Positions 22,784 to 54,081 of a stretch of DNA of 64,000 nucleotides are shown here, piece by piece. The notes below the pieces were generated by a model. The model worked only from the letters and a program-made list of their open reading frames with translations, was not told the DNA's origin and did no database searches. The stretch is from Candidatus Bathyarchaeota archaeon (GTDB lineage Archaea; Thermoproteota; Bathyarchaeia; Bathyarchaeales; Bathycorpusculaceae), in assembly GCA_963715865.1 (NCBI GenBank), contig OY970280.1, forward strand, positions 768,001-832,000. The letters run 5' to 3'. Each line of letters starts with the position of its first letter. The stretch's first letter is position 1. The position numbers were made by a program, and so were the translations under genes.

Positions 22784-22793
22784 TGGTTTTAGC

Positions 22794-22815
22794 TTGATTA
22801 ATACGTATTACTAAA
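22794..22815. promoter_or_regulatory. 22-bp motif copy 1 (palindromic core TAATACGTATTA)
   Basis: TTGATTAATACGTATTACTAAA; 21/22 identical to 33500..33521; intergenic, 65 nt before ATG 22881. Confidence 0.6.
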
Positions 22816-22880
22816 GCTGAGTGTTTTTTAAATAAAATAAATTCTTTTAATATCAAATCCATTTTCAAACAAATAACAAA

Positions 22881-23140: not shown

Positions 23141-24346
23141 ATGAAGGTCCTCTTCTTAGGTGCTGCACATCAATTCTCTTGGCCAGGAGGGGAGGCAAAT
23201 GTTGCTAGGATATTACGCTCCGCGCTCTCGGAACGAGGCATGGATATCCATGCTGCCTCCTTATCCCGCTCAGCAACAAATCAGAAGTTCCCTCACCTGT
23301 CGTCAGCCACACCTATGTCAGTAGTAGACCCAGGAATTGTTAATCTGTACCGACGATACATACAAAAAACCAAGCCTAACGTAGTCCTCACATGCTACGA
23401 TTATGACCTTTCAGCGTTCTGGGCAAGTGTACTTTCTGGAACTCCAACGATCGCTCAAACCTTGAGCCCATGGCCTGTATGCCCAAAAGATGACCTATTC
23501 ATCTCAACCAAGCAAACTCGTTGTGAAGGCCCAAACTTGATCTGCGGACAATGCCTAGCTCGAATATCAGAAAACCAAAGAATGAAATCGCTTTCCACCT
23601 CTTCAGTTGGGCAAGTACCTTTGTCGGTTCTTTCAGTTATGAAAATTAACAAAGTCAGACGCATGATATCTAAGCTGAACTGTGCTTCAGCCATAGTCGC
23701 GGATAATCTGTTTCTAAAAAACAAAATGGTACAAATCGGTTATGACCCACAAAAAGTCCACATGATTTATAACGGCGTAAATGCGAACAAGAGCAAATCA
23801 GCAACAGATGCGCACAAACCAAAAACAGTTCTGTTCCTAGCTTATCAACCCACCGAACACAGACGAACACTAAAAGGTTGCCATCATTTTGTTCAACTTG
23901 CAAGAAACCTAAAGCCCGAATTTCGAGACGTACAGTTTCTATGGGTAGGTCGGGAAGGAACTCAAACAAATGACAGCTTTGACACTATAAGTTACATTTG
24001 GAAAGACCAAGAGCTTCAAGAAACCTACGAATCATGCTACATATTCCTCTTACCATCCCTGTGGCCGGAAACAATGAGCTATGCCGCTCAAGAAGCAATG
24101 GCTCACGGAAAACCCGTGGTAGCATACGACACAGGAGCAAACAAAGAAGCAATAATCCACAATGAAACCGGCATGCTGGCAGAATGGGGAAACATCGCCC
24201 AATTAACATCTCACGTCAGAACATTACTACTTGATGAGAAAGCAGCCAAACGCATTGGAAACAACGCCAGAAAACTAGCACAGGCAAAGTTTAGCATAGA
24301 GCAAATGGCAAATAACTATGAAAAACTGATAGAAGAAATCGCATAA
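23141..24346 (+). CDS. GT4 glycosyltransferase
   Basis: IYNGV, LLPSLWPETMSYAAQEAMAHGKPVV. Confidence 0.9.
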   Translation: MKVLFLGAAHQFSWPGGEANVARILRSALSERGMDIHAASLSRSATNQKFPHLSSATPMSVVDPGIVNLYRRYIQKTKPNVVLTCYDYDLSAFWASVLSGTPTIAQTLSPWPVCPKDDLFISTKQTRCEGPNLICGQCLARISENQRMKSLSTSSVGQVPLSVLSVMKINKVRRMISKLNCASAIVADNLFLKNKMVQIGYDPQKVHMIYNGVNANKSKSATDAHKPKTVLFLAYQPTEHRRTLKGCHHFVQLARNLKPEFRDVQFLWVGREGTQTNDSFDTISYIWKDQELQETYESCYIFLLPSLWPETMSYAAQEAMAHGKPVVAYDTGANKEAIIHNETGMLAEWGNIAQLTSHVRTLLLDEKAAKRIGNNARKLAQAKFSIEQMANNYEKLIEEIA

Positions 24347-24357
24347 ACACCTTTGAG

Positions 24358-25518
24358 GTGGTTAAGATTTTGAACACAATTCCTTTGTATAAACCTCAAA
24401 ACGCATTAGGCAACGAAGAAATAGACGCAGTTAGAGAAGTCCTCAAATCAGGATGGCTAACCCTAGGTCCAAAAACAATCCAGTTTGAAATAGCCTTCGC
24501 AAAATATATAAAAGTAAAATACGGCGTTGCCACGAACTCGTGCACGTCTGCTATGTACTTGGCTCTAGACGGTTTGGGAATAGGCAAAGGTGATTCCGTT
24601 GTCGTTCCAGTCAACACTTTTGTTGCTACAGCAAACGTTGTTCGATGGCGTGGAGCCGAACCTGTTTTCTGTGACGCAGGCGAAGACGGAGAAATTGACC
24701 CAGTTAAGTTGGCGAATATTCTTGAAACGAATGAAAACGTCAAATGTGTGATACCTGCACATATTTACGGTTTCCCCTGCAACATGAAAGTCATCAGTCG
24801 ATTGACCAAGAAACATGGCGTGAGAATGATCGAGGACTGTGCGCAAGCCCATGGTGCGACATTCGGAGACAAAAAAGTTGGCAGCTTCGGCGACGCTGGA
24901 TGTTTCAGCTTCTACGCAACAAAAAACATAACAACAGGCGAAGGCGGAATACTCGTAACAAGCAACAAAAACGTGCAAAAAAGAGCCTTATTTGTGAGAA
25001 ACCACTGTCAAACCAAAACCCCAACTGAAAAGGCCGCTGACTGGCACTATGACGTTACCGATCTTGGCTTTAACTTCCGAATGAGCGAAATCGAAGCTGC
25101 GATAGGACTTACACAAATGAAGAAACTTGACCTCATCACAAAATATAGGAGGGAACTTGCAGGGAAGTACAAGAAAGCACTGGAAGAGATCGAAGGTATC
25201 AAGATGCTCCATGACCCTGGCGATAGTCTATGCCACGGCGTTTTTCATTTGCTGGAAGTAAAGGTTGAAAAACCATACCCATTAACTAGAGACGAACTGT
25301 ACAGCCATTTACGAAAAAGAGGCATAATCACCGGAGTGCACTATATTCCTCTGCACAACTTTTCTTATTACAGAAGAACCACAAAATACAAGAAGGGAGA
25401 TTTCCCATGCGCCGAAGCATTATTCTCAAAAATTTTGTCACTTCCAATGTTTCCGTTCATGACAGAACAGGAATTTCAAACCATAATCGAAGCCCTAAAG
25501 GCAAAGGCACTCAAATAG
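24358..25518 (+). CDS. DegT/DnrJ/EryC1/StrS PLP aminotransferase, ArnB/PseC/Per-like (probable 4-aminotransferase)
   Basis: SGWLTLGPKT, NSCTSA, EDCAQAHGA, FSFYATKNITTGEGG, GFNFRMSE. Confidence 0.9.
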   Translation: MVKILNTIPLYKPQNALGNEEIDAVREVLKSGWLTLGPKTIQFEIAFAKYIKVKYGVATNSCTSAMYLALDGLGIGKGDSVVVPVNTFVATANVVRWRGAEPVFCDAGEDGEIDPVKLANILETNENVKCVIPAHIYGFPCNMKVISRLTKKHGVRMIEDCAQAHGATFGDKKVGSFGDAGCFSFYATKNITTGEGGILVTSNKNVQKRALFVRNHCQTKTPTEKAADWHYDVTDLGFNFRMSEIEAAIGLTQMKKLDLITKYRRELAGKYKKALEEIEGIKMLHDPGDSLCHGVFHLLEVKVEKPYPLTRDELYSHLRKRGIITGVHYIPLHNFSYYRRTTKYKKGDFPCAEALFSKILSLPMFPFMTEQEFQTIIEALKAKALK

Positions 25519-25577
25519 TTGCCACCGCATAGTGGAGAATTTGCTAAAATAAAAAGCCATAACCTTGTCTGAAATTA

Positions 25578-26693
25578 GTGAAATTAATGGAAAATACAAT
25601 AAATTATGTAGGTTGGGCAACTCCCAACAACAACTTGGGCGATGAGGCACTATACAGAATTAATCAAGACATTTTTGCCAAATACAATTTTAAGCTGCGT
25701 CGAATAACTGATCCGCGCAGGCAGAAACATAGTCAGACATCGCTTGTCAGTGGAGGTACCTGCCTACCTTTAATTGCTATGTATATGCGACCTACAAAAT
25801 ACGCATACGTTTTTGGCACAGGTGTCTTAGACCCATTGTTTTACGGTCCGTTTGATCCAGAGTTAATCGACAGATTCAAGTTACTCCATTTTAGGTTTAT
25901 CGGCGTAAGAGGCAATATTTCAAGAGCACGCTTGAGAGGCTGGGGAATAGATTCCGAAGTGATAGGCGATCCAGGCTTATCCCTAAAACCTACAAAAGTC
26001 TCAGAAAAGTGCAACAACAAAATTGCTATAAACATCGGCGCAGGCGATCCCAAATTCTCTTGGAAAGCCCAAGATAGAGTGATCACAGAGTTGAGCAAAG
26101 TCTGCAAGGTCTTGAAAGCTGAAGGCTACGAACTGGTTCTCATTCCATTCTGGAAAAACAACATGGAGGATGTCGAAAATCTTTCCAAACTGGTAGATGC
26201 CGGCATCTTTGAAAAATGGGTAGATGCCGAAGCGACCATGAATCTGATTTCAACCTGTAAAATATTTATCGGCGAGAAACTGCATTCTCTGGTTTTTAGC
26301 GCTGCCGCAAACACACCCTTTATCGGACTCGCCTATTCACCAGAACACTTCGATTTTGCAGACAGCGTGGGCTTTTCAGAATTCACCATGCCTACCACTG
26401 AAATCACAGCTGAAAAGATAATTGCAATGTTCCATGACCTCATCAACAACTACGAGACAATACAAGACAAGTTAGCGGGGCGCGTCAACGAATATCGCGA
26501 AAAGCAGCGCAAATTTGCAGCCAGAATAAGCTCAGATTTAGAATCTCTCCCAGAAGATAAATGGGCCATTCAAAACAACTTTGGAAACACGCTACTGCTG
26601 CGAGCAGACAAGCAATTTTACACAAAAACGGGCAAAATATGGAATGTTTGGAATAGGGCTGTTTTCTCGCAACTAATGCCTTACCTGATTTAA
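25578..26693 (+). CDS. polysaccharide pyruvyl transferase family protein
   Basis: NNLGDEAL, SGGT, IGVRG..S, GDPGL, EKLHSLVFSAA. Confidence 0.8.
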   Translation: MKLMENTINYVGWATPNNNLGDEALYRINQDIFAKYNFKLRRITDPRRQKHSQTSLVSGGTCLPLIAMYMRPTKYAYVFGTGVLDPLFYGPFDPELIDRFKLLHFRFIGVRGNISRARLRGWGIDSEVIGDPGLSLKPTKVSEKCNNKIAINIGAGDPKFSWKAQDRVITELSKVCKVLKAEGYELVLIPFWKNNMEDVENLSKLVDAGIFEKWVDAEATMNLISTCKIFIGEKLHSLVFSAAANTPFIGLAYSPEHFDFADSVGFSEFTMPTTEITAEKIIAMFHDLINNYETIQDKLAGRVNEYREKQRKFAARISSDLESLPEDKWAIQNNFGNTLLLRADKQFYTKTGKIWNVWNRAVFSQLMPYLI

Positions 26694-26710
26694 AAACGAA
26701 TTAAGAAATA

Positions 26711-28000
26711 TTGCATATGGTAAGCATGAAAACAACAAATATGTTGTATATGCCGATGAGCCACTATGAAGAGGACGGTAAGATGAAAAATCTGCTGATT
26801 ATAACTGCGGATACGGATGATTACAACAAAAACGTGGGCGATTACGGTCGTTACCCCTATATGGTAAAACACTTCAGTAACAGATATCGTATCCAAATAC
26901 TGAATTATTATGCTACTCAGGGGCATGAGCGCATAACTAAAAAGCTCTTGCATCCAACCAAAGAAAATGAAGAAGGAACACCAATCAAAACATTAGGCGT
27001 CAAGCTGCTATTTGAAGTTCTTCCTCTCAAATCTCAAATGTTTGATCGATACCTTTCTCCTTTATTTTTTACGTTTTTACAACCGTTCTTTGTTGTTTTG
27101 ATAGCTTTTAAGCGCTTAGGTAAGAATGACATTTGTATTGCAGGGGGATTGTGGGGAGGAATAATTGGATATGCTTTAAAATGTTTAGGTAAAACAGACT
27201 GTCTGGTTTATGAGGATTTGGACCTTTTTCCTTATTTTTGGGATAACAAGTTATTCCAAATTACGCTGTATGCTATTGAGAAATTTGTGGTGAAAAAAGC
27301 CGATTTAGTGGTAAGTGTAAGTGATGCGTTAGCAGAATTAAGAAGGCTTCAAGGTGCTAAGAACGTAATAGTTGTACCAAATGGCGTAGATTACAATTTA
27401 TTCAGCAAAGGGCAGAGCAAAAAAGAGCATGTTCCAACCTTGGTGTATGTGGGTGGTCTAGTAAATTATCAAGGGGTTGATTTGCCGATAAGGTGCTTGC
27501 CAGAACTAGCTAAAGCCTTTCCTAATATTAGATTTCTTATTTTAGGTACAGGTCCATTTGAGAATGAGCTTAGAGTATTAATTAAAAATCTTGAACTTGA
27601 ACGGGCTGTCTTCCTTTTAGGCGGGCAAAAACATGAGAAACTACCAGATTATTTTTCCGAATCAGATATTGCAGTAGCAACAGCCAAACCGAGAATTTTA
27701 ACTCGATATTCCGCGCCTTATAAGATTCCGGAGTATATGGCAGCAGGCTTACCCATTATAACAACCAAGATGGACGAACGACAAGAATTGCAAAATAAAT
27801 TAAAAGGAATTATTTCAATTAACTTGCGGGAAAGAGATTTCAAAGATGTTGTCTTGAATCTTTTTTCAGACGCTGAACTTTATAGAGAATTATCTGAAAA
27901 GGCTATAAGAACTGCAAAAGAATCTGATTGGACTGATTGTTTCAAGATTGAATTTGATGAAATAGAAAAAACCTTTGAAAAAAAGACTCTTGAGAAATGA
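26711..28000 (+). CDS. GT4 glycosyltransferase (probable start ATG 26783)
   Basis: VPNGVD, LVYVGGLVNYQG, PYKIPEYMAAGLPII. Confidence 0.88.
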   Translation: MHMVSMKTTNMLYMPMSHYEEDGKMKNLLIITADTDDYNKNVGDYGRYPYMVKHFSNRYRIQILNYYATQGHERITKKLLHPTKENEEGTPIKTLGVKLLFEVLPLKSQMFDRYLSPLFFTFLQPFFVVLIAFKRLGKNDICIAGGLWGGIIGYALKCLGKTDCLVYEDLDLFPYFWDNKLFQITLYAIEKFVVKKADLVVSVSDALAELRRLQGAKNVIVVPNGVDYNLFSKGQSKKEHVPTLVYVGGLVNYQGVDLPIRCLPELAKAFPNIRFLILGTGPFENELRVLIKNLELERAVFLLGGQKHEKLPDYFSESDIAVATAKPRILTRYSAPYKIPEYMAAGLPIITTKMDERQELQNKLKGIISINLRERDFKDVVLNLFSDAELYRELSEKAIRTAKESDWTDCFKIEFDEIEKTFEKKTLEK

Positions 28001-28201
28001 TTGGTTTTTTATGGTATTAATAGAGCCTTCAATAATTAAGGTATTAGATTTGGAAAACATCCACGGGTATTCTGAAATCTTGGTTTAATTAATAAATGAA
28101 TTGTGTCATTGATTTTACTATTGAAGAGTATGAGGCTGCTCTTCCCGAGATTTTTCTTACTTTACAACAAACTTGGCTTTTGTCAGCCCTAGGCGGAGAA
28201 A

Positions 28202-29029
28202 ATGAACGCACGAACAGAAAATCCATACATTAAAATGCTTAGAATGGTTTCTTTTGATATACGCAATTTTGATCCTTTTCTCCTTACCACTTATTTTGAT
28301 CTGCTACGCGGTTCAATACGCACTAGAGTTTCCAAGGAAGCCAATTTCTCATCAGAAAGATTCTTTTGGACTCGTTTTTTTCATGAGCGGAAAAAAAGGT
28401 TTGGTTATGTGATGAGATGTAAATCAGCTTCTGTTTGTTCTCCAACTACGGAAGCTATCCTCTCAGCGTTAGCAAAGCTTGAAAAATCTTTTCCAGCTCC
28501 ACTCTTGCTTATTGATGTGGGTGCTGGTCCATTTTCAGCCTTTAATATTGACAGTCTGGTCAATCGAAGCGATTTGAAAATAGTGACTGTTGATCCGTTA
28601 GCAGATTTTTATAAGGAGTTGCATAGAAAATTCCAAACGAACTATGCTTCGAATCTTGTAAAGGGTTATGGGGAGGCCTTAGATGAGCATTTTGAAAAAG
28701 ACCGCTTTCATCTAGCCATCACTGAAAATGCACTTGATCATGCGATGAACCCTAAGCTTTTCATAAGAAAATTATTCGACATCGTTAAACCTGGAGGCTA
28801 CTTGATACTAACTGGATATGTTAATAATGGCTCGATTGAAAAGTGGCAAGGGTTGCACAAATGGGATATTGAAGTGATGAACGGAGAATTGATTCTTTCG
28901 AATCAATCTAAGACAACTTATGAGAATATTTTTTCTGGCCTTAATGTTTCTCCCATCAAGAGAATCATAAAGAAAGGGGACATTGACACATATTATTTTA
29001 CTTATGTTAAGAACGATAATACCAAATAA
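28202..29029 (+). CDS. class I SAM-dependent methyltransferase
   Basis: LIDVGAGP, NALDH, VKPGGYL. Confidence 0.82.
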   Translation: MNARTENPYIKMLRMVSFDIRNFDPFLLTTYFDLLRGSIRTRVSKEANFSSERFFWTRFFHERKKRFGYVMRCKSASVCSPTTEAILSALAKLEKSFPAPLLLIDVGAGPFSAFNIDSLVNRSDLKIVTVDPLADFYKELHRKFQTNYASNLVKGYGEALDEHFEKDRFHLAITENALDHAMNPKLFIRKLFDIVKPGGYLILTGYVNNGSIEKWQGLHKWDIEVMNGELILSNQSKTTYENIFSGLNVSPIKRIIKKGDIDTYYFTYVKNDNTK

Positions 29030-29044
29030 AACAATCAAATTCGA

Positions 29045-30478
29045 ATGCCCTCTCAAAGGACTAATTCTGACTCGTGCGTGAGTTCTGAAACTAACAGGAA
29101 GAATTTCCTTATTTTGGTCAGGAGCGACAAACAACAAAAACATGTGGATCTTATGAAGATTTACATCACAAATGATGGATGTGAAGTAGGTAAGCTTTAC
29201 TCCTCATACATACAACAACTTTTTCTGAAGACTAACCCACGAATAGTTAACACATCAGATCCAAAAGAAGCCGACCTAATCCTCTTCTATGCTTGTGGAC
29301 TAACCGCAACCAAAGAAGAACAATCACTACGCATAATCGAAGTTATTAAGTCCATGATGAAACCCTCAGCAAGACTTCTTGTTTGGGGCTGCCTCTCAAA
29401 ACAAAACCCCGAATCGCTTAAAAACAAATACTCTGGTCCCATGCTTGGGCCCTCAGATATGAATTTCTTTGAGGAAATTTTGAGACAAACAACAAACGAA
29501 CCTAAATGCTCGAACATAAATCAAATTCCAGACGCCAACTTCCCCTTAAAGGGAGAAGCGCTTCAACCCATTTCATCAACTAAGCAAAACATCATGTACC
29601 GTGTTTTCGGTGACCTCGATGGATACCTAAGCCAACTATTCTTCAAAGCAAATTCCTCCATTTTCTACTTAAGAGTCGCCGAAGGCTGTACATCCCATTG
29701 CACCTACTGCAGTGAGCGGCTCGTTTGGGGAACAGTGAAGAGCAAGCCAATCGAAAAGGTAATCTCTGAATTTGAAAGCGGCCTAGAAAAAGGATACACT
29801 AACTTCTTTCTCTGCGCAGAAGACTTCGGAGCCTACGGAGTGGATATCGGCTTAAAGGCGACCGATTTGCTTAAACAGCTTGTTGACGTTGGCAACGATA
29901 AAAATTATAAAATAATCATCAATGAACTAAGCCCTCCTTACTTAAAAAATATGTTACCAGATTTTGAAAAAATCTTCAGTACTGGAAAGATAAGCACACT
30001 AGGCGTTCAAGTTGAGTCCGGTAGCAACAGGGTTCTCAAACTAATGGGCCGACAATATAAAGCAGAAGAATGGAGAAACCTCATGCTTCGCATTAATAGA
30101 AATTTCCCCAGCATCGACCTCTCAACTCATTTTATGGTCGGTTTTCCTACGGAGACAGAAGAAGACTTTAACGCTACAATGAAACTACTCGACTTTCCGT
30201 TACTTCTTAAAGATATTCTAATATTCAAGTTCTCACCTAGACCAAACATCCCAGCGGCGAGGCTGTCTGGACAAATATCTCAAAGCGTCATCGAACTCAG
30301 GGCAAGAAGACTGCAAAGAAAGTTTTGGTATACATATCCTTTGAATTTAGCAATTCGTTATCCATATTCTCTTATCAAGAAACCAGCACGCTCCTTCAAT
30401 GACCTAAATCATCAATCACCTCCATACAAGCTAAATACCGAAACTACAAGTGTCCATGCGAAACTCAAAGGATCCTAA
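29045..30478 (+). CDS. methylthiotransferase-like (MiaB/RimO-type) radical SAM protein without TRAM domain; probable start ATG 29153
   Basis: UPF0004-like N-domain with three Cys (DGC, YAC, WGC), EADLI, AEGCTSHCTYC, EDFGAYGVD, GVQVESGS.RVLKLMGR, MVGFPTETEEDF, FKFSPRP; no TRAM beta-barrel at the C-terminus. Confidence 0.82.
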   Translation: MPSQRTNSDSCVSSETNRKNFLILVRSDKQQKHVDLMKIYITNDGCEVGKLYSSYIQQLFLKTNPRIVNTSDPKEADLILFYACGLTATKEEQSLRIIEVIKSMMKPSARLLVWGCLSKQNPESLKNKYSGPMLGPSDMNFFEEILRQTTNEPKCSNINQIPDANFPLKGEALQPISSTKQNIMYRVFGDLDGYLSQLFFKANSSIFYLRVAEGCTSHCTYCSERLVWGTVKSKPIEKVISEFESGLEKGYTNFFLCAEDFGAYGVDIGLKATDLLKQLVDVGNDKNYKIIINELSPPYLKNMLPDFEKIFSTGKISTLGVQVESGSNRVLKLMGRQYKAEEWRNLMLRINRNFPSIDLSTHFMVGFPTETEEDFNATMKLLDFPLLLKDILIFKFSPRPNIPAARLSGQISQSVIELRARRLQRKFWYTYPLNLAIRYPYSLIKKPARSFNDLNHQSPPYKLNTETTSVHAKLKGS

Positions 30479-31898
30479 GAATTTTCAATCCAGTATTTAT
30501 CTAATCAACAAAGAATTAAGGAGCAATAAAACCTTGAAAACAATCAATGCTTTTGGAGAAGAATACTACTCATATGAGCACCAGAAAATCTTCGAAGAGT
30601 TCCTTTCAAATGCACAATCTCAAAATCTAAACATAAAAGTCATAAAGCAGTTGTTTCTAAAGCCTTATCTTCCAGCTACGGAAATCTGCAAAGAATTTGG
30701 AACCAGCAAAACCGAACTTATAAAAACCTATGACTTCATCAGGTCCTTTTACAAAAGCAAAGAACTGTTCGCATATTCTCCATATCCATACTTGGTTAAT
30801 GTCCTAGGACAGTTATCAAAGGATGCCGAACGGATTCAAACAATACTCAGAGGAGAAAGACCTTTTCCACCATCCGATAGTTTGGAACTGTTTATCAGCG
30901 AATCTTGCAACGCAAAATGCAAATTCTGCTACAGAAACGACAACATATATCACCATAAAGACAAAACTCTAACAGATTCAGAATATGCCCAATTAATAAA
31001 CAATTTCGCCGATCTAAATGGTCAAAATCTTGATGTAACCGGCGGTCTTGAACCCCTGCTCAGCCGTTCCCTGCTCGGTATCCTAAAAACTGGAGTAGAA
31101 CGCAAACTAAACGTCCATTTGTACACCAATGGAATTGCACTTGGCAAAGACAGAAAGATTACCGAACAAATAATGAAAATAAAAAGAGTCAGAATCAGCC
31201 TCAACTCAACTAACAGCAAAAACTACAAAGAAGTCATGGGAGTGGACAAGTTCGAGCGAGTAATAGAAAATTTGCGACAACTCGCTGAAACCAAAAGAAA
31301 AACCAAATCAAACGTCCAAATCGGCGTTGGATTCGCAATATTCAAACAAAACTACACATGCATTCCTGAAGCTCTAGAACTAGCCCAAAAACTTGAACTT
31401 GACTTTTTAGACCTAAGAGCAGTCGAAGTAACCAATGTAGAAAGACTCGACCAGCAACAAAGAACAGAATTGCAGTCTATCCTTAATGAAGTAAGACGAA
31501 AAAAAATGCGAAACGAATACGGCGCATTAAACGTAAGCATCGCAGACACATTCAACACAGTTATCAACCCTGAAAATGATTGCATGAAATACGTGAAAGA
31601 AGACTTAGTAAAGGAACTCTGGCACTTCAGAGTCACGGTGACACCTTATGGCAAGGTCTACGCTTTAAACTTCATCGGCCAACCTTCAAGAGAGGACGAT
31701 CGGTTCCTGCTAGGACAAATAAGAGAAAACAAAGATCTTTCAAGCATACTAAGCAATGGAAAGAATATTCCTTATGACGAAAATTCCTTGGTTGCTCACG
31801 ACATGACTCTAATGATGGCACTTTCTAAGATAGCCTCTGACTTAGAGTTTGGAATTAACCTAGAAGAAAACCCATTCAATTGGAATAGCCTACCTTGA
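30450..31898 (+). CDS. DesII-like radical SAM enzyme (NDP-4-amino-4,6-dideoxyhexose ammonia-lyase homologue)
   Basis: CNAKCKFC. Collinear matches to remembered S. venezuelae DesII along the whole length: TGGLEPL, YTN..AL, RISL...Y, FERVIENL, DFLDLR, L.QQQRTELQ.IL, V...G.VY, R+L.G.+. Confidence 0.72.
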   Translation: MSMRNSKDPKNFQSSIYLINKELRSNKTLKTINAFGEEYYSYEHQKIFEEFLSNAQSQNLNIKVIKQLFLKPYLPATEICKEFGTSKTELIKTYDFIRSFYKSKELFAYSPYPYLVNVLGQLSKDAERIQTILRGERPFPPSDSLELFISESCNAKCKFCYRNDNIYHHKDKTLTDSEYAQLINNFADLNGQNLDVTGGLEPLLSRSLLGILKTGVERKLNVHLYTNGIALGKDRKITEQIMKIKRVRISLNSTNSKNYKEVMGVDKFERVIENLRQLAETKRKTKSNVQIGVGFAIFKQNYTCIPEALELAQKLELDFLDLRAVEVTNVERLDQQQRTELQSILNEVRRKKMRNEYGALNVSIADTFNTVINPENDCMKYVKEDLVKELWHFRVTVTPYGKVYALNFIGQPSREDDRFLLGQIRENKDLSSILSNGKNIPYDENSLVAHDMTLMMALSKIASDLEFGINLEENPFNWNSLP

Positions 31899-32050
31899 CC
31901 GCTCTTATGGGAAAGATGCTCTCGCGCTCATTCTAAGAAATGTGATTCCAAAACAACGCCAACACGCTATGATAACCGAAACATCAAGGAAACTCAAGGG
32001 AAACTTCTTAAGGCAATGAGTTCAGCCAAACCTGAGGTCATCAAAACCAA

Positions 32051-33139
32051 ATGATTCCATTCATAGACTTCAAACGAGAACTTGCCGAGATAGGCGATAA
32101 AGTAGCCGATGCCATGCTAACGGTTCAAAAGAGCGGCCAATTTATCTTAGGCGAAAATCTAAAAGAATTTGAAAGAGAATTCTCTAGCTATATAGAAGCT
32201 CGATATGGAATCGGTGTAAACTCTGGCTCCGATGCATTATACTTGACCGTAAAAGCACTAGGAATCTCCAAAAACGACGAAGTCATCACCGTTTCACATA
32301 CCATGAGTTCCACCGTTGACGCAATAAGCAGAAATGGAGCCAAACCCATCTTCGTTGACATCGATCCCGAAACCTTTACAATGGACGCAACAAAAGTCGA
32401 AACTAAAATCTCAAACAAGACACAAGCGATAATACCCGTACACCTCTACGGTCACCCAGCAAACATGACTCCACTACTCAAAATAGCAAACGAGCACAAT
32501 ATACCGATAATCGAAGATGCTTGCCAAGCCCACGGCTCAGAATACTGCAATAAAAAAGTGGGAAACATCGGAGACGTCGGCTGCTTTAGTTTTTACCCAA
32601 CAAAAAACCTCGGCGCCTATGGTGATGCTGGCATGATAACCACCAACAACAAAGAGCTAGCAGAAGAACTGACAAAAATGAGAAACTACGGCCAATCCGC
32701 AAGATACAGCCATGACTTCATAGGCGTAAACAGTCGACTAGACGAAATCCAAGCTGCAATATTACGCGTGAAATTGCGAAAACTCGACGAATGGAATGAA
32801 AGAAGAAGAAGAACTGCCAAACTCTACAACGAACTCCTAAGCAACGCTAACGTAACAACGCCCATCGAAAGAGAATACGCAAAGCATGTGTATCACTTAT
32901 ACGTGATAACCCATAACGAACGAGACAAGCTTCAGAATCATTTAACGGAAAAAGGAATTCAGACACTAATACACTATCCAATTCCAGTACATCAACAGAA
33001 GGCGTACGCAACAAAAGTAAAGCTTCCAATAACCGAGAAAACTTGCGGCAAAATCCTCTCTCTGCCCATTCATCCATGGCTAGACGAAGACGAAGTCAGA
33101 AAGATAGCCGACTGTATTAACGAATACTGCAGAAACTAA
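32051..33139 (+). CDS. DegT-family aminotransferase, DesV/FdtB/QdtB-like (probable 3-aminotransferase)
   Basis: [70 protein letters not shown]. Confidence 0.9.
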
Positions 33140-33499
33140 AACAAAGCTACAATCGGCATTTTTTATACCACTTGAAATTCCGCTTCGTCCTTCACCAAAC
33201 TTGGTAATCACATTCGGGGTTATTCGCCAAGATATCCAGGGGCGAAGCTCCATTTAAAGTCTCAAATCCATAAGAACACGCGCGCAAATCAACTAACATA
33301 ACTGTGGGAACGCCAAACCCAAGAGAAGGATGTGAACTTGCCAAACAAAGTGAAAAGCGTCTTCGCATTCAACTGGGCATCCTTCCTGCGCTCACCTAAC
33401 TGCTAAACAACAGCGCCCGATTCCTGCTACTATTCATCTTTTGATTAGCAATGTAATATTGGTGGTAGTGGGATTTTTGGGTTTTAACTAAATTTAACA

Positions 33500-33521
33500 T
33501 TGATTAGTACGTATTACTAAA
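33500..33521. promoter_or_regulatory. 22-bp motif copy 2
   Basis: TTGATTAGTACGTATTACTAAA, 80 nt before ATG 33602. Confidence 0.6.
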
Positions 33522-33601
33522 CCAGATATACCGTTCTCGCCTATTTCACATATTTTTAGAAATTTTGCAAAAAAACCAAATTATTTTTTAGGGAATCAAA
33601 A

Positions 33602-42177: not shown

Positions 42178-42930
42178 ATGTGGCTGGTAACTTTTATGGG
42201 CAAGCTTTTCTCTTCAGGACCACAGCCTTGGTCAGAAACTCCGTGGCTGGAAAGAAGTAAATTCTTTGATTATCTTTTTATGCGCTTTCTTGAATTTAAC
42301 GATGCTAAAGTAAATGGTGTCTGTGTTGACATAGGTTGTGGAGACGATAGGTCTATTGGCAACGCTTTGTTTCTTTTAAAGTATTTCTCGGAAGTAGTCT
42401 GTACTGATTTAAACAAGCAAGGACTAAAAAATCATCAAGAAAAATCTAAAAAGCTAAGAAAGCAAACTGCATATGTGGTTGCAGATGCGCAGCATTTACC
42501 TTTTAAAAATGAATCAGTCGATGGAGTCTCTGCTTTTTCATTAATTGAGCATTTGCCTAAGCAGATTGAATTTATTGGTGAAGTGAGGCGTATACTTGTG
42601 GATGATTCATTGTTCATACTGCAATTTCCTAACAGACAATTTCCACTTGAAGTCCATACTGGTGTACCTTTTCCAAGCATTATTCCGATAAAAGTACAAA
42701 AGCGGTGGGGTCAGTTTATGTATGGATGGATTGATTTCGAGCTGAATAGCCTTACGAAGAAGGCAGCCATAAAATTATGCGAGATGTCGTTTAAGTCGAT
42801 CTCCATTCAAAATGTCAATTTTACCGAAAATCTGATTCCAATTAAATTTAGAGTAATTAAAAAGGTTTTGGAAAAATCAGGTTTTCTTAAATTTGTTCCA
42901 ATGGGTTACTTTTTCATTTGCACTACCTGA
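42178..42930 (+). CDS. class I SAM-dependent methyltransferase (Methyltransf_11)
   Basis: VDIGCG, ADAQHLPF, LIEHL, PNRQFP.E.HT. Confidence 0.85.
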   Translation: MWLVTFMGKLFSSGPQPWSETPWLERSKFFDYLFMRFLEFNDAKVNGVCVDIGCGDDRSIGNALFLLKYFSEVVCTDLNKQGLKNHQEKSKKLRKQTAYVVADAQHLPFKNESVDGVSAFSLIEHLPKQIEFIGEVRRILVDDSLFILQFPNRQFPLEVHTGVPFPSIIPIKVQKRWGQFMYGWIDFELNSLTKKAAIKLCEMSFKSISIQNVNFTENLIPIKFRVIKKVLEKSGFLKFVPMGYFFICTT

Positions 42931-53160: not shown

Positions 53161-54081
53161 ATGAAAAAGGTCCTAGTTACAGGCGGAGCAGGCTTCATCG
53201 GCTCGAATCTAGTTCCGCGCCTCATAGAAAAAGGGCACTCTGTAATTGTACTTGACAATTTGTCGTCTGGGAAACTGGAGAACCTGAGTAGCGTCCGAAA
53301 TAACCCTAATTTTTGCTTTATACAAGGCGACATCCGTGATAAAACAGCGGTGCATGAGGCATTTTGCAGGGTTGATGCAGTTGTGCATTTAGCTGCTTTG
53401 ATCGATGTTTCAGCCTCAGTAATTGATCCTTCAAAGACCCATGAGGTTAACGTTACAGGCACTTTAAATATGCTTCAAGCAGCAGAAAACAAAGTTGATC
53501 GGTTTGTTTTCGCTTCTTCTACAGCCGTGTATGGGAATACTGAAGCCTTGCCCATTAAAGAGACTGAAGTTCTTAGGCCAATTTCTCCTTATGCAGCGTC
53601 AAAAGTTGCAGGCGAAAGCTATTGCAGCGCTTTTACAGGCTGCTACGGCTTAGACGCGGTTGCTTTGAGGTTTTTTAACGTGTATGGACCTAGAAACGAG
53701 AATAGTCCTTACAGCGGGGTTATTACAAAATTTCTCAGAAAAGCTTGCAACAATGAGGTTTTAACTATTGAAGGGGATGGAGAACAAACCAGAGACTTTA
53801 TTCATGTGAGCGATGTTGCTGAGGCGTTAGTGTTAGCTCTAGAGCGTAAACAGTTGCAGGGTGAGGTTTTTAATATCTGTACGGGTGTGCCTACGAGTGT
53901 AAATCAGCTTGTTAATGTTTTAAGGAGTGTTACAGGCAAAAATCTATGCGTAAAACATGACTCGCCTAGGCAAGGCGATATTCGAGAAAGCTTTGGGGAT
54001 CCCGCTAAAGCAATGGATAAACTTGGTTTTAAGTCTAAAATAAGCTTGAAGAAAGGATTAGAGATGTTGCTCAAAACGTAA
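53161..54081 (+). CDS. NAD-dependent epimerase/dehydratase (extended SDR, GalE/WbpP-like)
   Basis: GGAGFIGS, HLAA, ASSTAVYG, YAASK, RFFNVYGP, DG.QTRDFIHV. Confidence 0.92.
   Translation: MKKVLVTGGAGFIGSNLVPRLIEKGHSVIVLDNLSSGKLENLSSVRNNPNFCFIQGDIRDKTAVHEAFCRVDAVVHLAALIDVSASVIDPSKTHEVNVTGTLNMLQAAENKVDRFVFASSTAVYGNTEALPIKETEVLRPISPYAASKVAGESYCSAFTGCYGLDAVALRFFNVYGPRNENSPYSGVITKFLRKACNNEVLTIEGDGEQTRDFIHVSDVAEALVLALERKQLQGEVFNICTGVPTSVNQLVNVLRSVTGKNLCVKHDSPRQGDIRESFGDPAKAMDKLGFKSKISLKKGLEMLLKT

Follow-up and report, generated by a model that had tools for sequence, protein, structure and literature searches.

The window analysed here is a 64,000-nucleotide stretch of the genome of an uncultured Candidatus Bathyarchaeota archaeon from peat or sediment (C1:768001-832000 of a 2.35-Mb single-contig assembly), and the subject of this study is an operon within it that encodes a DesII-like radical S-adenosylmethionine (SAM) enzyme, here called DES, together with two DegT-family aminotransferases, AT1 and AT2. 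The host had been taken for an archaeon from the DNA letters alone, and the genome bears this out: it contains a full-length archaeal SSU rRNA gene (1478 bits), its nearest relatives are metagenome-assembled genomes (MAGs) of Bathyarchaeia and the nearest named genomes with the same gene cluster are likewise Bathyarchaeota/Bathyarchaeia MAGs. The run 23141-33139 forms a single operon within a surface-glycan island of this archaeon and comprises the following genes.

23141-24346, + strand: GT4 glycosyltransferase, gene 1 of the operon (Glycos_transf_1, E 1.8e-22)
24358-25518, + strand: AT1, DegT aminotransferase of the DesI/ArnB/PseC (probable C4) type (PF01041, E 2.5e-114)
25578-26693, + strand: polysaccharide pyruvyl transferase, PT (PF04230, 89.7 bits versus a cut-off of 25.3)
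26711-28000, + strand: GT4 glycosyltransferase (Glycos_transf_1, E 1.6e-21)
28202-29029, + strand: class I SAM methyltransferase, not DesVI-like (Methyltransf_11, E 3.9e-07)
29153-30478, + strand: TRAM-less MiaB/RimO-like radical SAM protein, methylthiotransferase (MTT)-like (UPF0004 and Radical_SAM)
30534-31898, + strand: DES, DesII-like radical SAM enzyme (homology and fold match to DesII)
32051-33139, + strand: AT2, DegT aminotransferase of the QdtB/DesV (C3) type (PF01041, E 1.5e-121)

The initial annotation of this region had named two DegT genes, a methyltransferase and a radical SAM open reading frame (ORF), all of which are present on the + strand; the pyruvyl transferase, the GT4 gene at 26711-28000 and the MiaB-like gene, which lie in the same range, had been overlooked. 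The DES ORF opens with GTG at 30450, and its homologues begin at ORF residue 29, which is the TTG at 30534; AAGGAG lies ahead of this codon at 30518-30523, and TTG 30534 is probably the true start. Because this start fits the homologues, the 29-nt overlap of DES with the upstream gene is probably an artefact of taking the longest ORF. By the same homologue-start reasoning, the MiaB-like ORF, which opens at 29045, probably starts at ATG 29153.

Whole-length homology of DES to DesII

To our knowledge, no other member of the radical SAM subgroup of DesII has been characterised, and DesII itself has been described only from the biosynthesis of macrolide sugars. The ORF at 30450-31898 had been described as resembling DesII along its whole length, and all of the motifs listed in support of that statement fall in aligned columns. 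Reference DesII sequences came from Streptomyces plasmids: two genes annotated as desII were used, and one of them adjoins an annotated DesI gene in a macrolide cluster. A profile of 40 DES family members aligns with these by hhalign over 396 columns (probability 99.4%, E 4e-21), from the N-terminal helical domain through the C-terminal helices (P0001 69-470 versus DesII 59-478). DES and DesII are 17-23% identical. In the N-terminal half the aligned motifs are KPYLP..E....FG, C153/C157/C160, GGLEPL (198-203), YTNGIAL (225-231) and R248.S250; in the C-terminal half they are F268.RV.ENL, D318F..LR323, the V...G.VY hairpin and the tail D451...L458...D464...G468. C153/C157/C160, G198-E201 and R248/S250 align with C141/C145/C148, G187-E190 and R238/S240 of DesII, and the cluster cysteines, GGLEPL and the ribose-motif residues R248/S250 are invariant across the 40 family members.

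Structural data agree with this alignment. The best sequence match of DES in the PDB is DesII (8hzv/8hzy), with an E value of 8e-14 from the single sequence over residues 139-434, and the 40-member profile extends the match to profile positions 44-405 at E 2e-24; MoaA and other radical SAM structures match in the core only, at E values of about 1e-6. An AlphaFold comparison had been suggested as a check on the assignment. The AlphaFold2 model of DES (mean pLDDT 85, pTM 0.85) has DesII as its best whole-length fold in Foldseek, with a TM score of 0.70 over 482 columns (8hzv_A), and the next fold, SuiB, scores 0.47.

TIGR04426, the DesII-specific model, is the top NCBIfam match of DES, but at 81.1 bits (80.8 in the scan of its own genome) the score lies far below the cut-off of 450; the representative of the family, P0060, reaches 96 bits. 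A tungsten-cofactor maturase model nearly ties (80.7 bits versus 81) and MoaA models follow, which might suggest that DES acts on no sugar at all, for instance in peptide or cofactor maturation, and lies in the island by chance. We consider this extremely improbable: the maturase and MoaA matches span the radical SAM core only (approximately 200 residues), whereas DesII matches in all three domains, and in all loci examined DES has DegT genes as neighbours.

Judged from its sequence, DES is a whole-length homologue within the broad 'DesII-like' subgroup recognised by the SFLD (PMC9477430), since the 396 aligned columns take in the N- and C-terminal domains and other families match the core only. 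It is not a DesII equivalog: its score of 81 bits falls far short of the cut-off of 450, and counterparts of Glu408 and Asp456 of DesII are lacking.

Active-site residues and breadth of the family

In the structural study of DesII, Glu408 was proposed as the general base; the E408A and E408Q variants were still active and D456A was inactive (PMC11434129). HMMER, hhalign and MAFFT agree in placing Phe408 of DES at the position of Glu408 and Val448 at that of Asp456. Position 448 is Leu in more than 90% of the family and position 408 is Phe or Leu. The family has its own invariant residues (His450, Asn407, Gln411, Arg394 and Asp366), and an invariant His450-Asp451 pair aligns with Phe458-Asp459 of DesII, one helical turn after the position of Asp456. 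Asp451 aligns with Asp459 of DesII and with a Glu of the wider superfamily, so that the acidic position appears to be ancient. We propose that His450 and Asp451 take the place of Glu408 and Asp456 of DesII.

DES lacks the pair of residues to which the holding of the C4 ammonium has been attributed in DesII, as would suit a radical SAM C3-dehydrogenase that converts the 3-OH of a nucleoside diphosphate (NDP)-sugar to a ketone and so feeds AT2, with AT1 adding a second amino group to give a 3,4-diamino sugar or serving a different sugar. DesII itself dehydrogenates its substrate when C4 bears a hydroxyl group, as in TDP-quinovose, but with a protonated 4-amino group oxidation becomes unfavourable and elimination favourable (PMC11434129). 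Taken with the gene neighbourhoods described below, we judge such a dehydrogenase to be on the unlikely side.

The family comprises about 58 members in a 90%-clustered database, mostly near 450 residues in length. When 1.8 billion representatives were searched exhaustively with the family profile, 115 clusters reached E<1e-30, and the 150 best matches did not include true DesII. The breadth of this large, uncharacterised superfamily, the very large distance from DesII and the differing catalytic residues could mean that DES carries out some other radical chemistry on amino sugars (epimerisation, AprD4-like dehydration, C-C rearrangement or C-methylation-independent chemistry) and that the DesI/DesII/DesV order is coincidental. 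We regard this as fairly improbable, since the occurrence of both DegT types with DES across phyla is exactly the pattern expected of a route that leads from a 4-amino through a 3-keto to a 3-amino sugar, and no partner gene points to a different acceptor.

The closest relatives outside the family are domains inside very large proteins of 700-7,800 residues (P0063-P0074, P0080, P0092, P0138 and others), one of which, a giant protein with a DesII-like domain, is annotated as Candidatus Omnitrophota. These and other relatives carry extra conserved cysteines, one in the hairpin and a CxxxxC motif before the last helix, suggesting an auxiliary cluster. These extra cysteines, present in the closer non-family relatives, were not found in the DES family or in DesII; because they are absent, no auxiliary cluster is expected in the DES family. 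A Pfam scan of the giant proteins gave just Radical_SAM, with SPASM in P0072 and a class I methyltransferase in P0071 and P0076, and offered no Rosetta-stone clue. In the DesII clade itself, an annotated desII gene on a plasmid of Streptomyces sp. RerS4 (L025:301-7083) adjoins ovoA (5-histidylcysteine sulfoxide synthase), together with genes for a methyltransferase and a DegT-like aminotransferase; this non-macrolide context is unusual for a true DesII-clade gene.

The two aminotransferases

The initial annotation had assigned the upstream DegT enzyme to the ArnB/PseC type and the downstream one to the DesV type, and both assignments agree with the present analysis. The catalytic lysine of AT1 lies in SFYATKNITTGEGG, with the form and one-residue gap found in the annotated DesI of a Streptomyces plasmid (L026), and this form of the lysine motif is common to DesI, ArnB and PseC. 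Against curated models AT1 scores 363 bits for PseC (cut-off 423.5), 264 for ArnB and 181 for DesI (cut-off 650), with LegC and WecE also ranking. PseC, ArnB, LegC and WecE are, as we understand them, C4 enzymes, and AT1 is likely to be a C4-aminotransferase.

AT2 retains its catalytic lysine in a motif of the form K-N-L-G-x-x-G-D-[AG]-G. Its PDB matches are headed by 7b0d (549 bits), followed by the top characterised matches QdtB (348), DesV (319), WlaRG (312) and WbpE (285), above all C4 enzymes. These four we take to be C3-aminotransferases, and AT2 is predicted to be an NDP-sugar aminotransferase of the C3 type. From end to end it shares approximately 70% identity with 7b0d, which was deposited as 'Glutamine--scyllo-inositol transaminase', a name that looks automatic to us; a literature search found no publication on this entry, which nevertheless provides a close structural template for AT2.

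Precursor supply and the question of desosamine

The only short-chain dehydrogenase/reductase (SDR) gene in the window, at 53161-54081, was considered as the missing 4,6-dehydratase and rejected, being GalE-like; the earlier caveat that the window holds no such dehydratase is therefore upheld. The genome search that had been recommended located an RmlB gene at C1:487556-488503 (466 bits versus a cut-off of 365) beside an NTP_transferase (RmlA) gene at C1:489437-490141 (190 bits), a pair that lies about 280 kb upstream, outside the window.

The cluster had been called desosamine-type. As far as the product is concerned this name does not hold: because no DesVI-like N,N-dimethyltransferase was found, the product is not expected to be desosamine. 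The island does encode two class I methyltransferases (28202-29029 and 42178-42930), which speaks for a literal desosamine pathway with an N,N-dimethylated 3-amino-3,4,6-trideoxyhexose product, but the first, the one compared with solved structures, has no PDB sequence match at E 1e-3, DesVI (3bxo) included, and so shows no detectable similarity to any solved methyltransferase, as the initial annotation had suspected with regard to DesVI. In relatives, moreover, the module is accompanied instead by neighbouring acyltransferases (Acetyltransf_6, Hexapep or GNAT), and the scores for the DesI, DesII and PseC models fall well short of the respective cut-offs. A literal desosamine pathway is thus very unlikely.

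Conservation of the trio

Neighbouring genes were mapped in 17 DES loci. The family is not specific to archaea: at 39-43% identity it extends beyond Bathyarchaeia to MAGs of Planctomycetota, Brocadiaceae, Alphaproteobacteria, Myxococcales and Verrucomicrobiota. Both DegT forms (K-N-[IV]-x-x-G-E-G-G and K-N-L-G-x-x-G-D-[AG]-G) flank DES in every adequately flanked locus outside Planctomycetota. The complete trio is found in Bathyarchaeia (L011, L013, L014, L029, L030 and L058), in an alphaproteobacterial MAG (L034) and in three unassigned metagenome contigs (L055, L056 and L057). These independent archaeal and bacterial loci support the DesI/DesII/DesV-like logic claimed for the window.

The AT2-type DegT gene adjoins DES wherever a flanking DegT gene is seen, except in the truncated contigs L035 and L036, which show only the first (AT1-like) type. 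The DesI-form gene adjoins DES in L055, L034, L035 and L036 and stands elsewhere in the same operon in the window. In the Planctomycetota/Brocadiaceae loci L031-L033 only the AT2-type gene is seen beside DES, and in L031 a methyltransferase gene comes after DES. The constancy of the AT2-DES pair and the Planctomycetota loci without a nearby AT1-type gene are best accommodated by the C3-dehydrogenase alternative. Plain 3-oxidation, however, would have no need of both DegT types, which most full-context loci possess, and NAD-dependent WbpB-like oxidoreductases already adjoin the module in L013. The sequential action of AT1, DES and AT2 remains our preferred reading of these neighbourhoods.

Two loci carry further genes of interest. 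The trio of L056 is accompanied by rmlA-like (NTP-transferase), rmlC-like and SDR genes. In the alphaproteobacterial locus (L034:3812-7166), DES and its two DegT genes adjoin a FAD oxidoreductase and a three-domain thiamine pyrophosphate (TPP) enzyme, which appears to us to resemble the YerE-type makers of branched-chain sugars. Such TPP enzymes typically belong to branched-sugar chemistry, and the pair is the neighbourhood feature that speaks for amino-sugar radical chemistry other than that of DesII.

Within the class, no further DES orthologue was found at E<=1e-60 in 300 sampled genomes, 14 of them of the same genus. We take the DES module to be patchy in distribution, a pattern expected of a variable surface-glycan island.

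Proposed pathway

The pathway proposed here draws on the observed homology, fold, cofactor motifs, catalytic lysines and conserved trio; from these we infer that a deamination takes place, on which substrate and nucleotide carrier the enzymes act, and with what regiochemistry. AT1 would aminate C4 of an NDP-4-keto-6-deoxyhexose, the likely substrate being dTDP-4-keto-6-deoxyglucose supplied by RmlA and RmlB, whose genes lie outside the window. DES, by its homology and synteny, would then abstract H-3 by means of a 5'-deoxyadenosyl radical, so that the C4 ammonium would be eliminated to give an NDP-3-keto-4,6-dideoxyhexose. AT2 would aminate C3, yielding an NDP-3-amino-3,4,6-trideoxyhexose, and glycosyltransferases of the island might then add this trideoxy-amino sugar to a lipid-linked glycan.

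That AT1, DES and AT2 act in this sequence as a nucleotide-sugar tailoring module with radical deamination is a proposal in which our confidence is evenly balanced; it is held at that level because equivalents of Glu408 and Asp456 are missing and the sequence distance from DesII is great. Several observations weigh against the proposal. Besides the substitutions by Phe408 and Val448, the TIGR04426 score is 81 bits against 450, the identity to DesII is 17-23% and more than 100 representative clusters, none of them characterised, are nearer to the family than DesII is. The regiochemistry of AT1 is assigned from the form of its motif and the ranking of hidden Markov models, and its best curated model, PseC, acts on UDP-HexNAc; a PseB-type dehydratase was not found in the genome, in which only generic SDR cross-matches of <=83 bits were seen. 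The 4,6-dehydratase lies 280 kb from the operon, and the Planctomycetota/Brocadiaceae loci show only the AT2-type DegT gene beside DES.

The MiaB-like enzyme and the pyruvyl transferase

The MiaB-like protein of the operon matches TIGR00089 at 210.6 bits (cut-off 251) over profile positions 1-357 of 429; because the match ends at position 357, the protein is considered to lack the TRAM domain. Cys46, Cys84 and Cys116, as well as Cys215/Cys219/Cys222, are all conserved, and a separate full-length housekeeping MTTase is encoded elsewhere in the genome. The protein belongs to a TRAM-less family of 376 proteins (E<=1e-20) from Bathyarchaeia, Jordarchaeaceae and Methanomicrobiales; members are approximately 400-425 residues long, retain the six cluster cysteines and are found in archaeal glycan clusters. 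A literature search on TRAM-less methylthiotransferases in polysaccharide synthesis returned nothing relevant, and the pipeline label 'tRNA methylthiotransferase' is probably wrong for this family.

PT is present in every Bathyarchaeia locus examined and the MiaB-like gene in most; the two genes are adjacent in L011, L014 and L058 and also in L062, an archaeal glycan cluster. A default coupling between the MiaB-like enzyme and DES was considered and rejected: members of the MiaB-like family occur in glycan clusters with no nearby DesII-like gene (L059:7001-8221, L060:7001-8188, L061:3718-4926 and L062:7001-8242), and bacterial DES loci lack both PT and the MiaB-like gene. On these same grounds, PT and the MiaB-like enzyme probably constitute a separate archaeal tailoring sub-module rather than a part of the DES pathway. 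Elsewhere on the contig (C1:499-2541 and 2309489-2353279), at least eight ORFs of 440-500 residues show weak MiaB-family cross-matches of 33-59 bits; they cluster near both contig ends and are probably a set of B12-binding or other radical SAM paralogues.

The surrounding island

The operon lies on the + strand of an island that extends from about 22 to 44 kb in window coordinates, with a GC content of 0.35-0.40 compared with 0.42-0.48 in the flanks. The island encodes glycosyltransferases, a GT2 protein resembling AglJ and Dol-P-hexose synthases, membrane proteins and sugar-tailoring enzymes. It (22000-44000) looks strain-variable and possibly horizontally acquired, in view of its low GC content and of the fact that no DES orthologue was found in the 14 other genomes of the genus. 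The first GT4 gene (23141-24346) has an orthologue at the equivalent position in L011 (573 bits), and the GT4 gene at 26711-28000 lies outside the conserved module in relatives. Two palindromic sites bracket the run 23141-33139.

22787-22820: palindromic site, copy 1, upstream of the operon, core TTGATTA[AG]TACGTATTACTAAA (repeat family D2)
33493-33526: palindromic site, copy 2, upstream of the next glycosyltransferase operon (repeat family D2)

The two sites form a direct repeat and are 82% identical across 34 nt. Both are intergenic and lie 5' of two consecutive glycan operons, and each is a candidate operator for a shared regulator.

Significance

The JGI pipeline automatically names many members of the family 'TDP-4-amino-4,6-dideoxy-D-glucose deaminase'; because public pipelines already give such names, the resemblance to DesII is not in itself new, and the logic of DesI, DesII and DesV is already known from macrolide producers. 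New here are the conservation of the trio beyond Actinomycetota, an active site that diverges from that of DesII and, in archaea, the association with the TRAM-less MiaB-like family. A literature search found no account of a DesII-like pathway in archaea or in any surface-glycan, O-antigen or polysaccharide context, and we know of no report of 3-amino-3,4,6-trideoxyhexoses in archaeal glycans. If the proposed pathway is correct, such sugars are predicted there, and radical 4-deoxygenation combined with amination would be a general tool for the diversification of surface glycans in uncultured anaerobes, among them Bathyarchaeia, Planctomycetota, Alphaproteobacteria and others. The family would also allow the mechanism of DesII to be compared with that of a natural variant whose acid/base residues differ.

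A wider claim would be that the trio is a widespread 3-amino-3,4-dideoxy surface-glycan route of anaerobic archaea and bacteria, with a His-Asp dyad as a catalytic apparatus unlike that of DesII, and that the Bathyarchaeial MiaB-like enzyme acts on a sugar or a lipid-linked glycan; we consider this combined claim distinctly doubtful. Were it true, the MiaB-like enzyme would be the first radical SAM enzyme of the methylthiotransferase type with a carbohydrate substrate, perhaps working with the adjacent PT. A further point of interest raised by the operon is the large TRAM-less MiaB-like family, which is confined to archaeal glycan clusters.

Comparison with known systems

DES resembles DesII of S. 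venezuelae, a dTDP-4-amino-4,6-dideoxy-D-glucose ammonia-lyase (8HZV/8HZY), in its three domains (an N-terminal helical domain, a radical SAM core and a C-terminal hairpin with helices), in its single CX3CX2C [4Fe-4S] site, in the identical GGLEPL motif, in the YTN..AL motif and the R.S ribose motif and in the D...G tail. It is encoded in one operon with a DegT enzyme whose lysine motif has the DesI form. Whereas DesII belongs to macrolide clusters, DES is found in uncultured archaea and bacteria, within surface-glycan islands, and has no DesVI partner. AT1 is, like DesI, a full-length PF01041 protein whose catalytic lysine lies in the K-N-I-x-x-G-E-G-G form, but its DesI score is 181 bits against a cut-off of 650, and PseC is the model that it matches best. 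AT2 shares with DesV and QdtB the full-length PF01041 domain and the catalytic lysine, and QdtB, DesV, WlaRG and WbpE rank at the top among characterised structures.

The MiaB-like enzyme has in common with MiaB, RimO and MtaB a UPF0004 domain with three conserved cysteines and a CX3CX2C motif, which fits two Fe-S clusters. It differs from them in lacking TRAM, in scoring below the cut-off, in being a second paralogue beside the housekeeping MTTase and in belonging to a family found in archaeal glycan clusters with or without DES. PT, finally, matches PF04230 above the cut-off, as CsaB and WcaK do, but it attains 63 bits against an equivalog cut-off of 213 and, in several loci, adjoins the TRAM-less MiaB-like gene.

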